Below the pieces are notes generated by a model that ran no database searches, had not been told where the DNA came from, and saw only the letters and a list, made by a program, of their open reading frames with translations. A stretch of DNA of 64,000 bases from Podarcis filfolensis (lineage: Eukaryota), in NCBI GenBank assembly GCA_964270895.1, contig OZ185439.1; one strand, written 5' to 3'. Position numbers and translations under genes: made by a program. Positions 4,861-55,564 of the stretch are shown here, in pieces (within the stretch, counting starts at the first letter, position 1; each line of letters begins with the position of its first letter).

Positions 4861-5434
4861 TGAAGCCTTAGATTAGCAGTACCCGGAGGTCCAGCGGTCC
4901 GCCAACCCCGTGGCCAGAGGGGAAAAACAATTCCAGAGACTTCTTGGTCAGAGAAAAGAGATTTATTGAGATCTGCGCAGAGGCAGCCAGTGGAGTCCTC
5001 TCCAAAGACTGGCTACAACGATACAAGTAAACAAGCATTTTTATACCTGAGAGCATGTCCATCTCCCCAATTCCCTCCAATCAGCTGGCAAGGTTAAGCT
5101 TATTTCCTTATATGGCATATGGCTATCTGACTAGCTAAGCCCCCCTCCTTCCCTTGTTCGTGTGCTCCTCTCTTGCGTTACTGCAATAGGAAGCTGCAAT
5201 AGGAAGCGTGTGCAGGAAGCGGCCCCCTTGTCCTGTCTGACCACATACGGTAAATAGATGCGGTTTCTGCTTAGCTGGCAAGCACAGGAAATGGTCTTGC
5301 TGCTGTTTGCTAGCAACTGCAAAGCAAGATTAAGAGAGGATTTACTGAATTTATTTCAAGTACAAGGTGCAGGGATTACTGATAGCAATCCCCTTCCTTA
5401 GGCACAAAGTGCAATCCCTACACCTCTCCCTTCA
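4861..5434 (-). repeat. 3' LTR (574 bp)
   Basis: Direct repeat of 10340-10913 (offset 5479) with no difference found by eye. TGAAG/CTTCA terminal inverted repeat, AATAAA at 4967-4962, TATAAAA at 5045-5039, U3 tandem 13-mer CTGCAATAGGAAG x2 at 5181-5206. Confidence 0.97.
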
Positions 5435-5449
5435 CTCCCTCCTCTTCTT
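5435..5449 (-). promoter_or_regulatory. Polypurine tract
   Basis: AAGAAGAGGAGGGAG on the minus strand directly abutting the 3' LTR. Confidence 0.9.
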
Positions 5450-5465
5450 ATGAACAACCTAATAC

Positions 5466-5672
5466 TTAGGTTCGTTCTGGTCGCTCGGGTTCATAGTATC
5501 CCTGGAGGAGAGCAATGAGGGTCATGACACGGGGCCCCATCCTGCGGGACATCATCTTCCCCATCATATTTTGCATACATTGCATCAAGCAGGGCATACA
5601 GAAGCAGAAAAGCAGTAAGATTATTCCTACCCACCAACCCCAATCTGTCCATGGCTCCTCCCACCACTCCAT
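5466..5672 (-). CDS. 68-aa Trp-rich single-pass membrane microprotein (env-TM tail remnant or accessory protein), 'ORF-B'
   Basis: MEWWEEPWTDWGW-WVGIILLLFCFCMPCLM-QCMQNMMGKMMSRRMGPRVMTLIALLQGYYEPERPERT. ATG in strong context (GAG ATG G). One hydrophobic span with clustered Cys; stop 16 nt before the PPT. Confidence 0.6.
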   Translation of the reverse strand: MEWWEEPWTDWGWWVGIILLLFCFCMPCLMQCMQNMMGKMMSRRMGPRVMTLIALLQGYYEPERPERT

Positions 5673-5675
5673 CTC

Positions 5676-6020
5676 TTAACCCTGTAAGGCCAACTGAAAC
5701 TGTGCTTCTATAAACGCCTCACCCGTAGGGGTGGGTCGCCAAAGTATCTCCTCCTCCCCTATTACTTGAAGCAACTTTCCTGCTACCCAACCGTCATGAA
5801 CGCAAATTGCGTAACCCCACGGTCGCCTATAAGAATCGTAGATATAATGGCAACCACAAGAATAAACCCAAGCGTTCAAGGGACGTTCAGAAGGGGTCAG
5901 CACGTCAAGAGGGGTAAAGTTGTCTGGGCTTAATAAAATCAGTCCAGGGGGAGCTGCGCCTGGATTGTCTGGTTGTCGGGTAACTACGGTGGGAGCGCTG
6001 CCTGCGGGCGCCCCTCCCAT
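5676..6020 (-). CDS. 114-aa ORF of unknown function in the env position, 'ORF-A'
   Basis: ATG three codons after the pol-frame stop (TGA 6032-6030), in the same frame. Pro/Gly-rich N-terminus and a WVYSCGCHYIY...WGYAICVHDGW core; no signal peptide or env motifs recognised. Confidence 0.5.
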   Translation of the reverse strand: MGGAPAGSAPTVVTRQPDNPGAAPPGLILLSPDNFTPLDVLTPSERPLNAWVYSCGCHYIYDSYRRPWGYAICVHDGWVAGKLLQVIGEEEILWRPTPTGEAFIEAQFQLALQG

Positions 6021-6029
6021 CCACCTTCT

Positions 6030-6868
6030 TCAGCCGTGCGTAGAAGGGTCAGCGTCCGGAGTGACCCTAGCAGGGCGGTCGTCTAGCGCTCTTCTGGAGA
6101 TGGTTAGCTTCAGAGGATCATCAGGATTTGGTGTAACTGTCCAATCTAAAATAGCCTTCTTCACTTAAGTGTGGTGGACCCAAGGGGTGAGGTCAGCAAC
6201 TTTAACAGCAGTGGGCCTGGGTCCACCTGTTAAGACAGAGAGAAAATCTCGGGAGAATTACTGCACATAATTATCAAACTGCACATTTTGACTAGCATGG
6301 AGGGTTATTGCAAAACTGAGTGGACAAAGGCTGGTCCATTGTCAGATCCTATTGACCTAGGTAGTCCATAGCGGGGAATGATCTCCCTAAGCAGGCACCT
6401 GGTTACTTCAAATGCCTTTTCAGTTCTGGTAGGCCAGGCTTCAACCCATCCTGTATACGTGCAGACCACCACAAGCAGGTAGCGGTATAGTCCACAGCGG
6501 GGCAATTCAGTGAAATCTGCAACAAGGTCTTCCATGGGTGCAGTTCCAATATGCTGGATCCCCGGGGGAGCCAAGGGTCCGGTTCTGGGATTATTCTTTT
6601 GACACAGCGGGCACTTCCTGGAAATCTGGGCTGCCAGTTGATAAAGGTGGGCTATGTAGAAGCACTGCTTCAGCTGTCTCGTTGTGGCATCTGGTCCCAT
6701 GTGGGTGGACTCATGGTATCTCTGAGTAATCTGCCGAGAAAGGGACTCTGGAATCCATATTCTGTCATCATGAGTAAGGTACCATCCTTCTTTGGACATA
6801 GTCAGCTCCTGAGCATCTGCGGTGTCCCTTTCCTTCTTGGTGTATATTGGCTTATCAGCGGTGTTCAA
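6030..6868 (-). pseudogene. pol: Integrase remnant (HHCC zinc finger, first two catalytic Asp motifs, deletion, C-terminal piece)
   Basis: HESTH...CPLC, DFTELP, WVEAWP, IGSDNGPAF. Stop at 6305, then only PTAVKV...PWVHHT*VKK remains; the catalytic Glu region is absent. Confidence 0.92.
6227..6250 (-). promoter_or_regulatory. Env-type splice acceptor
   Basis: GATTTTCTCTCTGTCTTAACAG|GTGG on the minus strand (AG at 6228-6227), inside the IN C-terminal remnant, the usual position of the env acceptor in gamma-like ERVs. Confidence 0.7.
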
Positions 6869-7757
6869 GATCCTTCCAGGGACCAGTGCTCCAATAACTG
6901 ACGCTGGGGGCTGGTTCCCGGGCTGCTTCCTTGGCCACTCTGTCTGCTAGTCGATTTCCTCTGGCCACTTTCCCTGGTCCAGTTGTGTGTCCATAACAGT
7001 GTACCACTGCTACTGCCTCGGGTTCCCATACTGCATCCAGGAGGTCCAATAAGGCTTGTGGGTGGGCCACCTGGTTTCCTCTGGAGGTGAGCAAACCTCT
7101 TTCCTTCCATAAGGCTCCATGGGCATGTAAAGTCAGAAAGGCATACTTAGAATCAGTATAAATGTTTATCTTCTGTCCCTTTGCTAGGGTCAGGGCTCTG
7201 GTGAACGCTGTTATTTATGCCAGCCGGGCCGACGTTCCAGGCGGGAGTGGCTGCACTTCGATCACTTGGTCTTCCAAGGCTACCACTGCATAGCCTGCTT
7301 TTCGCTGTCCAGCCTTAACAAAGCTGCTTCCATCCACAAACCACGAAGGCCAGTGGGGGTTTGCTTCATCTTTAAGGTCAGGCCTGCTAAAATATTCTTC
7401 ATCCATTACTTCAATGCAATCGTGCATCTGCTCCTCACCTTCTCCTACCGGCAACAGGGTAGCTGGGTTGAGGGCGGTGGTGACCTGAAACTTCAAACGC
7501 GGATGCAGCAGTAACATCTGGCACTTTCTCATCTTCGCTTGGGAGAGAAAATAGGTACCCTTCATGTCAAGCAGAGTTGGGACTGCATGCGGGGTCACAC
7601 AAACAGTGTCTTGGCCAAAAGTAAATTTGTCTGCTTTGTTCAGTAGGGTGGCTACTGCCACAACTGCTCTCATGCACGGCGGTAAGCCTTGTTCTGTAGG
7701 CGTCAGGCGCTCAGATAGGTATGCCACTGGCTGTTGCCAGCTTCCCAATTTTGGCAC
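6855..7757 (-). pseudogene. pol: RT connection / RNase H remnant
   Basis: PVAYLS, ALNPATLLP, WFVDGSSF...AGYAVV, LPPGTSA, VAVVHC, GNRLADRVAKEAA; interrupted by a stop at 7215 and frameshifts. Confidence 0.92.
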
Positions 7758-8245
7758 AAAACCCCTTTCGCCGTCCCTTGGTCCTCATGCACGAATAGAG
7801 TAAAGGGTTTCTTAGGACTTGGGATGCCAAGCGCTGGGGCTTGCTGTAGTGTCTTCTTCAAATCCACGAAGGCTTGCTGTTGTTCTGTGCCCCAAACAAA
7901 GGGGTCTCTCTCAGTTCCTCTGGTTGACTCATGTAGAGGCTTGGCAATGATGCTGTAATTAAATATCCATATCCTACAAAATCCTGCAGACCCCAGAAAG
8001 CCACGGAGTTCCCTACGGTTCTTTGGCTCTGGTATCAGGATAATAGCCTGCTTCCTTTCTTCACTGGTAACAAAAGGGGTGTTCCACTGTGATTGGCATT
8101 GCCTCAAGATCCTATGTTGGAGCAGTCGCTCTAGATGCACCCACACTCCTTCAGTCGCCCTTCTTGGGATGGGATACTTATTTACTGCAACAGGATTGAC
8201 AAATGGCTTGGGCTTCACAATTATTGGTGGGATATTCTTTGCCAT
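7703..8245 (-). pseudogene. pol: RT remnant: N-terminus fused to thumb, catalytic core deleted
   Basis: KYPIP...WNTP joined directly to SEERKQAI...RELRGFLGSAGFCRIWI; no LPQG or YxDD motif. Confidence 0.92.
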
Positions 8246-8940
8246 TCCTGGGGGGGTTCACTTGTTCCAGAATACTGGCGGGGATGGGTCCCTCCTCTTC
8301 TTTTACCATCATGAGGCGCCAGTACTCCCTCAGGGGTGCCTCCACAACCAGTTCCCCAAGTGACATAGTGGACAATGTGGCTTCTCCCGATGGCTTAAAG
8401 GTAATTTGGGCTTGCAACTTTGCCAACAAGTCTCTTCCTAATAATAGAATAGGGCATTCTCTCTTCCAGTGCCCTTCCTGTCGGCAGATGGCGCACTGAC
8501 TCCGTCCGAGACGGCTTCGCCCTCCTCCCCGGGCACTTCCTCTTTCCTGAGGGGTGGGTGTGGTAGCCTGTAATGCCATCAACTTCTCTGTTTGATACTT
8601 CTCCTTTTTTCTCTGGGCCTCCTCATCTCTCTGATTGTAAGTGGTTTGAGCTATTTCCAACATCTATTCCAGCCCATGATCGATGCACCCCTCATGCTTC
8701 TGGATTTTTTTTTCTTTTGGCGAATATCGGACGCTGCTGAGCTACAAAGGCAGCCTTTATAATGGGGCGCTGGCAATATCATCTGGGTTCTCCTCAAAGG
8801 TAGGGTTCTAATTTCTCCAATTGCACACATCAGCACTTGAAAAAGGCACATGTTGGACTGTATAAGTGCATGGTGGTGCTTCCCCACCCTGTCCTGGGGG
8901 GGGCTGGTGGGTCATACACTCTGCGTAGAGGCATCATTGC
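8178..8940 (-). pseudogene. gag: gag CA remnants, NC zinc knuckle and protease C-terminal tail
   Basis: VQHVPFSSADVCNWRN*NPTFEENP (CA start) jumps to IKAAFVAQ..DIRQK (CA end). CAICRQEGHWKRECP (CX2CX4HX4C) is fused to ILLLGRDLLAKL (PR end); no D(T/S)GA motif. Confidence 0.9.
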
Positions 8941-8999
8941 AGTCCCACCCTTTTTCTGTGCCTTATGGGACTTATAGAGGGACGCCCTGGTTGCTGCTT

Positions 9000-9648
9000 C
9001 TATTCATTTCTTTCGCATAGGGTTGTACATACTGTTGCAATCTCAATTGTCTGATACTGTGTCCACATTTTTCCTTTCTTTGCTAACTCAATTAGTCCCT
9101 TCATAAACTCATCATCATCCTCTTCCTCTTCGCTCTCTAATTCATCAACCTTGGAGGGTTCAGGCTGAGGGCCGGCTCCTCCCTGGTCCTGGGGCCCTGG
9201 GCCTGGGGGATTCGCTAGAGGGGCAGTTGGTGGAGCATAGGGTGGCGGCGGTTTAATGACTTCCCCCTCTTCTCCTTCTGGCTCTGGTATCACCGGGGGC
9301 TTTTCTGACTTCCCTGCCGGTCGGACTGCACAAATTGTATTTTGTGGGGCGTCGCCTCGGCAGGCTTTCAGCCACGGTGGATTATTTTCTACATTGATTT
9401 TCCAGGTAGAAATATAAGGGATCTGGTCTGGGTGGACGTTCAAGTTATTTTGATATAGTGGGTTGATTAGTTGCAAATTAAAACTGCCCTCCAAGGGCCA
9501 ATTAGTTCCTTGGGTGGGCCAATCAACCTCACATAATGTCCTCATCCTCTCTCTTCTCAATTTGAACCCCATCATCATGCTTCGTAGCTGCTTTCCAGTT
9601 GGTTAAAAAGCATTTCAGAGGACTACGTTGGCTTGCCCCAGACCCCAT
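9000..9648 (-). pseudogene. gag: gag matrix + late-domain region with a +1 frameshift
   Basis: ATG at 9648 (MGSGASQRSPLKCFLTNWK, Gly2). Removing one G from the run at 9570-9567 joins it to FKLRRERMRTLCEVDWP...WPLEGSF...PDQIPYI...PPWLK...PPPPY; stop at 9000. Confidence 0.88.
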
Positions 9649-10120: not shown

Positions 10121-10130
10121 GCTTACCTGC
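10121..10130 (-). promoter_or_regulatory. Candidate major splice donor
   Basis: GCAG|GTAAGC (GT at 10126-10125) between PBS and gag; an alternative donor CGG|GTGAGC lies at 10269-10268. Confidence 0.6.
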
Positions 10131-10316: not shown

Positions 10317-10336
10317 ATCCCGGACACGAGCCCCCA
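10317..10336 (-). promoter_or_regulatory. Primer-binding site, tRNA-Pro type, with a 2-nt insertion
   Basis: TGGGGGCTCGTGTCCGGGAT versus canonical PBS-Pro TGGGGGCTCGTCCGGGAT, 3 nt after the 5' LTR. Confidence 0.9.
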
Positions 10337-10339
10337 AAA

Positions 10340-10913
10340 TGAAGCCTTAGATTAGCAGTACCCGGAGGTCCAGCGGTCCGCCAACCCCGTGGCCAGAGGG
10401 GAAAAACAATTCCAGAGACTTCTTGGTCAGAGAAAAGAGATTTATTGAGATCTGCGCAGAGGCAGCCAGTGGAGTCCTCTCCAAAGACTGGCTACAACGA
10501 TACAAGTAAACAAGCATTTTTATACCTGAGAGCATGTCCATCTCCCCAATTCCCTCCAATCAGCTGGCAAGGTTAAGCTTATTTCCTTATATGGCATATG
10601 GCTATCTGACTAGCTAAGCCCCCCTCCTTCCCTTGTTCGTGTGCTCCTCTCTTGCGTTACTGCAATAGGAAGCTGCAATAGGAAGCGTGTGCAGGAAGCG
10701 GCCCCCTTGTCCTGTCTGACCACATACGGTAAATAGATGCGGTTTCTGCTTAGCTGGCAAGCACAGGAAATGGTCTTGCTGCTGTTTGCTAGCAACTGCA
10801 AAGCAAGATTAAGAGAGGATTTACTGAATTTATTTCAAGTACAAGGTGCAGGGATTACTGATAGCAATCCCCTTCCTTAGGCACAAAGTGCAATCCCTAC
10901 ACCTCTCCCTTCA
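10340..10913 (-). repeat. 5' LTR (574 bp)
   Basis: Apparently identical to 4861-5434. TATA box at 10524-10518, AATAAA at 10446-10441; followed by the PBS on the minus strand. Confidence 0.97.
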
Positions 10914-21947: not shown

Positions 21948-22478
21948 CCGTATTTTTCACTCTATAAGACGCACTTTTTCCCTCCTAAAAAGTAAGGGGA
22001 AATGTGTGTGCGTCTTATTGAGAGAATGCAGGCTGCACAGCTATCCCAGAAGCCAGAACAGCAAGAGGGATCACTGCGCTCCCTCTCGCTGTTCTAGCTT
22101 CTGGCTTAGCGTGCTGTGTCCCTTCCCCCACCTCCCGCAAAAGCCAGCAATAGCCGCGCTCCCTTTAAAGAGCGCGTGGCTCTTGCTGGCTTTTGCAGGA
22201 GGTGGGGGAAGGGACAGAGCGTGCGGTTCCTGCCTCTTCGCTCAAGAGGCTTTGCATTGCTTTCGCTGAAGCCAGAAGAGCAAGAGGGATCGGTGTGCAC
22301 CGATCCCTCTTGTTCTTCTGGCTTCCGGGATAGCCACACAAAGCCTCTTGAGTGAGGTGGAAGTGCTCCTGCCTCTTCGCTCAAGAGGCTTTGCATTGCT
22401 TTCTTGTTTCTTTTTTTTCTCCTCTAAAAACTAGGTGCGTCTTATGGTCGGGTGCGTCTTATAGGGCGAAAAATGCGG
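21948..22478. mobile_element. Tc1/mariner Tc2-like MITE
   Basis: TA|CCGTATTTTTCACTCTATAAGACGCAC ... GTGCGTCTTATAGGGCGAAAAATGCGG inverted termini; internal duplicated and inverted GC-rich blocks. Confidence 0.85.
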
Positions 22479-55430: not shown

Positions 55431-55564
55431 CAGGCATAGGCAAACTAGGCCCTCCAGATGTTTTGGGACTAAACTCCCATCACCCCTAGCTAATAGGACC
55501 AGTGTTCAGGGATGATGGGAATTGTAGTCCAAAACATCTGGAGGGCCGAGTTTGCCTATGCCTG
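55431..55564. mobile_element. hAT MITE, 134 bp, with 8-bp TSD TGCTACAT
   Basis: CAGGCATAGGCAAAC ... GTTTGCCTATGCCTG perfect terminal inverted repeats; TSD at 55423-55430 and 55565-55572. Truncated copy at 57984-58078; relative at ~29665-29790. Confidence 0.95.

Follow-up and report, generated by a model that had tools for sequence, protein, structure and literature searches.

The 68-aa ORF on the minus strand, from 5672 to 5466 of the window (the whole stretch of Podarcis filfolensis DNA analyzed here, 64,000 nt), is, as judged by comparison with its copies, an in-frame chimera in which the start of a retroviral Env is joined to its end, and it is neither a plain stub of the transmembrane subunit (TM) nor a separate FAST-like gene. 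We consider it probable that this mini-env is what one internal deletion left of the env of a defective gamma-like endogenous retrovirus (ERV), the first 18 codons being carried in frame to the last 52, and that it persists as a passenger without selected function. As a passenger the ORF has little importance by itself, and it is a warning for searches for FAST-like ORFs, since a single env deletion can yield a small single-pass ORF with cysteines and a basic tail that passes several of the published filters.

The protein sequence is the one quoted in the original prediction, and the features described there were recovered on the minus strand, the plus strand reading of 5466..5672 being interrupted by a stop. 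The ATG lies in a strong context (G at -3, G at +4), positions 1-12 hold 4 acidic and 0 basic residues, and a single hydrophobic span covers residues 15-33 with a Kyte-Doolittle peak of 2.33; the cysteines are at 23, 25, 28 and 32, and the basic residues are K39, R43, R44 and R48. The mini-env is the last ORF ahead of the polypurine tract (5449-5435), in env orientation and between pol and the tract. As had been predicted, no SU, furin site, fusion peptide or CX6CC motif was left in it and, lacking receptor-binding, fusion-peptide and six-helix parts, it has no Env fusion machinery. In MuLV the uncut Env tail inhibits fusion, according to PMC3917443. Pfam gave sub-threshold matches only for the mini-env, comparison with the PDB returned nothing better than E above 2, searches of protein collections found no homologues of similar length and the exact 68-aa protein was absent from a 15-billion collection.

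A splice acceptor is predicted at 5682..5700 on the minus strand, where a pyrimidine-rich stretch ends in CAG 9 nt ahead of the ATG; it was read directly from the sequence, is absent from the output of the acceptor pattern scan, and is missing in the copies that have no ATG. A putative major splice donor, assigned by motif only, lies in the leader at 10121..10129 (near 10127) on the same strand. If a spliced env mRNA is made, it would code for a 68-aa single-pass protein with its N-terminus outside, its C-terminus inside and its cysteines possibly palmitoylated; this orientation is predicted because both parent helices would have it. The retained end of env gave no support for structured RNA (z -1.45, 16/200 shuffles equally stable).

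The host element occupies 10913-4861 on the minus strand (6.05 kb), is bounded by 574-bp LTRs that are identical inside their ends (5' LTR at 10340..10913, 3' LTR at 4861..5434) and is flanked by a 5-bp target-site repeat. Its primer-binding site at 10318..10339, which we take to be tRNA-Pro-like, and its polypurine tract at 5435..5449 are on the same strand. Between them lies a broken gag-pol (6030..9647, minus strand) in which Pfam recognizes pieces of MA, zinc knuckle, RNase H and integrase, with deletions in CA, protease, RT and integrase. The element is a defective, helper-dependent gamma-like ERV: its cis signals are intact, internal deletions are held in common among copies and LTR pairs are near-identical, as in helper-dependent ERVs, and it does not have the complete gag and pol of an autonomous env-less LTR retrotransposon. 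Its description as an env-less ERV was accurate as to the deletion of env but incomplete, since there are further deletions in gag, protease, RT and integrase.

The origin of the ORF can be read from one less-deleted copy in the same genome, L020/L109. Its env begins in the same way but runs on through a longer leader, and downstream it retains part of TM with CX6CC and the true membrane-proximal region, together with a complete anchor and an identical tail. The mini-env consists of the first 53 nt and the last 159 nt of this env, with 5 nt common to both pieces. The 5' part (5620..5672, minus strand), identical to L020/L109 and homologous to the Env N-terminus of L040/L041, contains the initiator ATG, the Trp/acidic stretch and the start of the leader's first hydrophobic segment. 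The 3' part (5466..5624, minus strand) is identical over its 159 nt to L020/L109, where it lies downstream of the CX6CC region, and codes for the second half of the TM anchor, the Cys cluster and the cytoplasmic tail; it is collinear with that part of the L020 frame. Copy comparison and read-derived contigs place the 5-nt microhomology at 5620..5624 (minus strand), at the deletion junction. The L020 env frame matches Pfam TLV_coat with an E of 5e-10, and the full-length env frames of L040 and L041, relative to which about 1.33 kb of env is missing, open with the same Trp-rich motif (BLASTP E 7e-10). A search of 1.84 billion proteins gave 2 matches, both Env, one of them matching in two stretches.

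These results bear on several points of the original prediction. Its simplest reading, an env remnant, was right, both halves being identical to the L020/L109 env. Its start codon had been called independent; since full-length Envs begin with the same Trp-rich stretch, the ATG of the mini-env is env's own. The Trp-rich N-terminus had been assigned to the TM membrane-proximal region, a stretch (DPWSWLYSW...) that has in fact been deleted, and it corresponds to the beginning of the Env leader. The refutation proposed for a functional ORF, that family copies would expose it as the tail of a full-length env with an internal Met, was borne out in substance: longer copies identify it as an env deletion product, although the ATG is the initiator.

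The junction is neither a chance similarity nor an assembly error, given that its 21-mer occurs at 23 exact places (1 for the reversed control) and that the same joint appears in contigs from two public runs of one sample, where 427 nt are skipped and 5 letters fit both sides. Contig depth, which is a rough guide only, was 614 at the joint against 36 in a stretch unique to L020 in one run and 1782 against 131 in the other. None of the candidates (146/146 scored, next best 73%) was a full-length version of the direct parent env, and a run from this leader into an SU was sought in the read contigs and not seen, contigs being unable to prove absence.

The deletion probably arose by template switching during reverse transcription, with an in-frame outcome by chance in roughly 1 in 3 such joins. 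In our data, 29/79 possible microhomology joins are in frame, and of the 8 env-junction forms examined, 3 lead into the tail without a shift of frame. The idea that microhomologies between segments coding for hydrophobic residues favor in-frame joins was rejected (4/11 in frame there against 29/79 overall). Defective RNAs would then have been packaged and copied by a helper and would have recombined with one another, and it is this recombination between copies that would have moved the block of ORF-X, mini-env and polypurine tract between backbones.

A DNA search for the mini-env, in which 40 of 95 candidates were scored, gave at least 18 full-length matches; the 23 places of the junction pattern correspond to these 18 carriers and 5 copies without the ATG, and a pattern at the 3' end of the mini-env was found at 31 places. 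The LTR pairs are 99.65-100% identical in 18/18 carriers, which agrees with the young, recently spread element that had been proposed. We compared 60 stretches of 9.8 kb with the window (61 sequences in all) and defined the recombining pool as the 48 that have at least one deletion junction in common with the window copy, the other 13 rows being left out of the count. Mini-env is present in 18 of the 48 and absent from 30, which are mostly as young as the carriers; among these 30, 5 have the same junction and have lost the ATG, and 23 have another env deletion that removed the leader (LTR identity at least 99.3% in 21 and 91.7% in one, the remaining one having no LTR pair in the compared stretch). 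Spread therefore does not need the mini-env in cis. The carriers retain 47-71% of gag and 58-92% of pol, with the RT YxDD motif in 1/18 and the protease motif in 5/18, and losses of this kind mean that they need a helper. Their common deletion junctions occur in mosaic combinations, from which we infer repeated co-packaging and recombination under that helper. A helper that gives Gag-Pol could give Env as well, relatives with open env frames being present in the genome. Every env deletion seen leaves at least the last ~150 nt of env. Several young ERV families in the genome have long open env frames (467, 506, 532 and 678-704 aa), and for some of them there are more than 20 near-identical copies. 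In the other env-less form (L124-L145) the tail frame stops at different lengths (82-109 aa) downstream of an A-rich run, as slippage and a tail free of constraint would suggest.

One sign of something other than passive carriage is the block that contains the mini-env. Over 590 nt, comprising ORF-X (an accessory-type ORF of 114 aa between pol and env, at 5676..6020 on the minus strand), the mini-env and the polypurine tract, diversity is 0.39%. In these copies it reaches 5.75% in the U3 and 7.45% at the end of pol, and the corresponding block of the other env-less form has a diversity of 3.3-5.4%. The flanks of other deletion junctions are also more varied (median 1-8 differences per 150 nt vs 0), and a tree of the LTRs of 46 copies needs 5 label changes, at least 3 of them forced by starred branches (the bootstrap has not settled). 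The block is of recent origin and spread quickly, and selection could be the cause. The pattern can also be explained by a single recent origin together with the choice of copies for comparison by the block itself, or by an advantage coming from ORF-X or from cis signals; as the block contains an intact ORF-X and the polypurine tract as well, its low diversity does not single out the 68-aa ORF. The mini-env is open in 18/18 copies that retain the ATG, and the carriers show 5 distinct changes, 5/5 non-synonymous, a test of low power in which ~25% synonymous changes are expected and the P of seeing 0 is 0.25 under neutrality. In the TM part of the other env-less form 10/22 variant codons were synonymous against ~25% expected (p 0.03; counted in 21/23 copies, two divergent ones left out), a hint that recombination with intact envs could explain.

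A functional mini-Env, translated from a spliced env mRNA and aiding the defective element or affecting the host cell through its span and tail in the manner of SFFV gp55, is a possibility that we regard as doubtful, and the same doubt attaches to the forms it might take, for example competition with the helper Env or binding of a host membrane protein. Its own ATG in strong context, the retained acceptor-like and donor-like sites, the near-invariant block in at least 3 starred LTR clades and a second lineage (3 copies) in which ORF-X continues without a frameshift into this anchor and tail (176 aa) speak for it, and PMC3185572 on gp55 offers a precedent for such products gaining activity. However, 30/48 pool copies do without it, the carriers' changes are all non-synonymous, the leader core FCWHERHR and half of the anchor are gone, and the intact ORF-X or the polypurine tract could be what spreads. 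Were the ORF translated and also under selection, it would illustrate how Env can give a new viral microprotein in one step. The stronger version, in which one deletion between two Env helices produced a translated 68-aa microprotein that is advantageous to defective proviruses and is sweeping the recombining pool, seems to us improbable; if true, a new viral membrane gene would have been caught at birth, and Env might in this way give rise to FAST-like proteins. Co-option of a single copy by the host as a microprotein gene is suggested by the open frame and the predicted expression signals, but it is extremely unlikely given that 18/18 LTR pairs are 99.65-100% identical, too young for evident co-option, and that the exact protein is missing from the 15-billion collection; contigs from a second organism did not cover the start of the ORF, which is no proof of absence. 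Co-opted envs of the syncytin type are old, fixed, orthologous loci under purifying selection, whereas there are 18 young copies here with no synonymous excess.

Env-independent spread through a FAST-like cell-cell fusogen, as the original prediction had put forward, is very unlikely. The layout does invite the comparison, being small and single-pass, with a span predicted (from hydropathy and charge only) to be N-out/C-in and cysteines adjoining the membrane, those at 23, 25, 28 and 32 being candidates for palmitoylation of the p10 type. In 10.1101/2025.03.14.642691 the size range is 63-107 aa, within which 68 aa falls, and the polybasic rule requires 3 or more K/R in the 15 residues that follow the span; the mini-env has a marginal 3-4, scattered, the number depending on where the span is ended. 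However, these basic residues, the helix and the cysteines are inherited from Env; the protein starts M-E-W and has no MGxxxS/T myristoylation motif; and its ectodomain of ~12 residues, acidic and Trp-rich, has no Cys and no polyproline, compared with the ~20-40 aa of FAST proteins with a cystine noose, polyproline helix or amphipathic motif (~30 in 10.1101/2025.03.14.642691, and ~20 for the short p15). The endodomain is ~35 aa long (40-140 aa in FAST) and its helix moment on the Kyte-Doolittle scale is 1.6-1.8, below that of the intact Env tail (up to 2.1). No FAST match was obtained in Pfam, protein or PDB searches, the carriers cannot replicate alone and relatives with open env frames are in the genome. 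A plain TM stub, with the Trp-rich start as membrane-proximal region and the ATG as an internal or newly made Met, would account for the C-terminal 52 residues, which are TM anchor and tail, but the true membrane-proximal region differs, is present in L020 and is absent from the mini-env, and the match of the first 53 nt to the 5' end of env refutes this reading, to which we give almost no credence.

The closest precedent for the mini-env is, by analogy, Friend SFFV gp55. PMC3185572 describes a gammaretroviral genome that depends on a helper, each of its structural genes carrying deletions, with an in-frame env deletion joining an N-terminal part to a C-terminal part of TM, and in both respects the mini-env is alike. 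On the other hand, gp55 keeps an N-terminal SU domain, has lost the tail and has proven activity (PMC3185572), whereas the mini-env, known here from sequence alone, has lost all SU, keeps 18 leader residues and retains the tail. By this analogy it belongs with the in-frame env deletion products already known from gp55, here in a young, non-autonomous lizard ERV. The element itself is similar to recKoRV, for which PMC6112702 reports env loss, microhomology at breakpoints, the success of copies without env and young copies spreading by recombination and trans-packaging, and in which the 'superspreader' idea for env-less copies is cited. Reovirus FAST proteins and sORF2 of the MDG1 group, as described in PMC7412057 and 10.1101/2025.03.14.642691, are also small and single-pass, with predicted N-out/C-in orientation and, beyond the span, basic residues together with a helix; unlike them, the mini-env has no myristoylation motif, a far shorter ectodomain without a fusion-peptide module, an origin from env by deletion and no sequence similarity. 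Direct homologues of both halves are found in the Podarcis muralis Envs XP_077783391.1 and XP_077790221.1 ('syncytin-1-like'), which have the same Trp-rich start and the same anchor and tail but are 465-517 aa long, with SU, furin site and CX6CC. IAP, VL30 and ETn are env-less or defective ERVs; the present element differs from env-less ERVs in that its deletion keeps the env ATG in the reading frame of the anchor and tail, and from IAP in that gag-pol function is lost too, so that it is not an autonomous retrotransposon. Among titles and abstract beginnings, a coverage that leaves out most subscription papers, no description of the lizard ERV family or of a leader-anchor env fusion was found.

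ORF-X and the Env leader are better leads than the mini-env and may repay study more. ORF-X follows directly after the pol stop, is 103-114 aa long and has relatives in L026, L032 and L123; identity between 4 lineages is 33-70%, and the MGG-x-P-x-GS start and the SCGC motif are invariant. Its ATG and frame are intact in 17/18 carriers and broken in the other env-less form. It had no Pfam, homologue or atlas match, and its structure model (pLDDT 49) was too poor for a fold search. From its sequence, ORF-X seems to be a genuine accessory gene of the retrovirus, as yet unnamed, and its M-G start may be myristoylated. Literature searches found no description of this conserved accessory ORF or of the two-helix Env leader. 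The latter, ~65 aa long, carries a conserved FCWHERHR-x-CG/WG-basic loop between two hydrophobic segments (L020:1026-1226; L040:331-540; L032; L072; L121) and precedes quite different SU domains. It is reminiscent of long or two-helix signal peptides such as the arenavirus SSP and betaretroviral leaders.

Other forms were observed in the same genome. The three copies with the 176-aa fusion, L115-L117 (L026-L028), include the Env membrane-proximal region between ORF-X and the anchor and tail, all in frame, and represent a mini-env that arose independently of the one in the window. In the full-length relative L123 another accessory-type ORF, 135 aa long when counted from its first ATG, lies between pol and env, and L119 (L035) contains a 462-aa open frame in which gag pieces are joined to the 3' half of env. 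Elsewhere in the window, short inverted-repeat hairpins at 22113-22363 and 55431-55564 are probably small non-autonomous DNA elements or SINE pairs.
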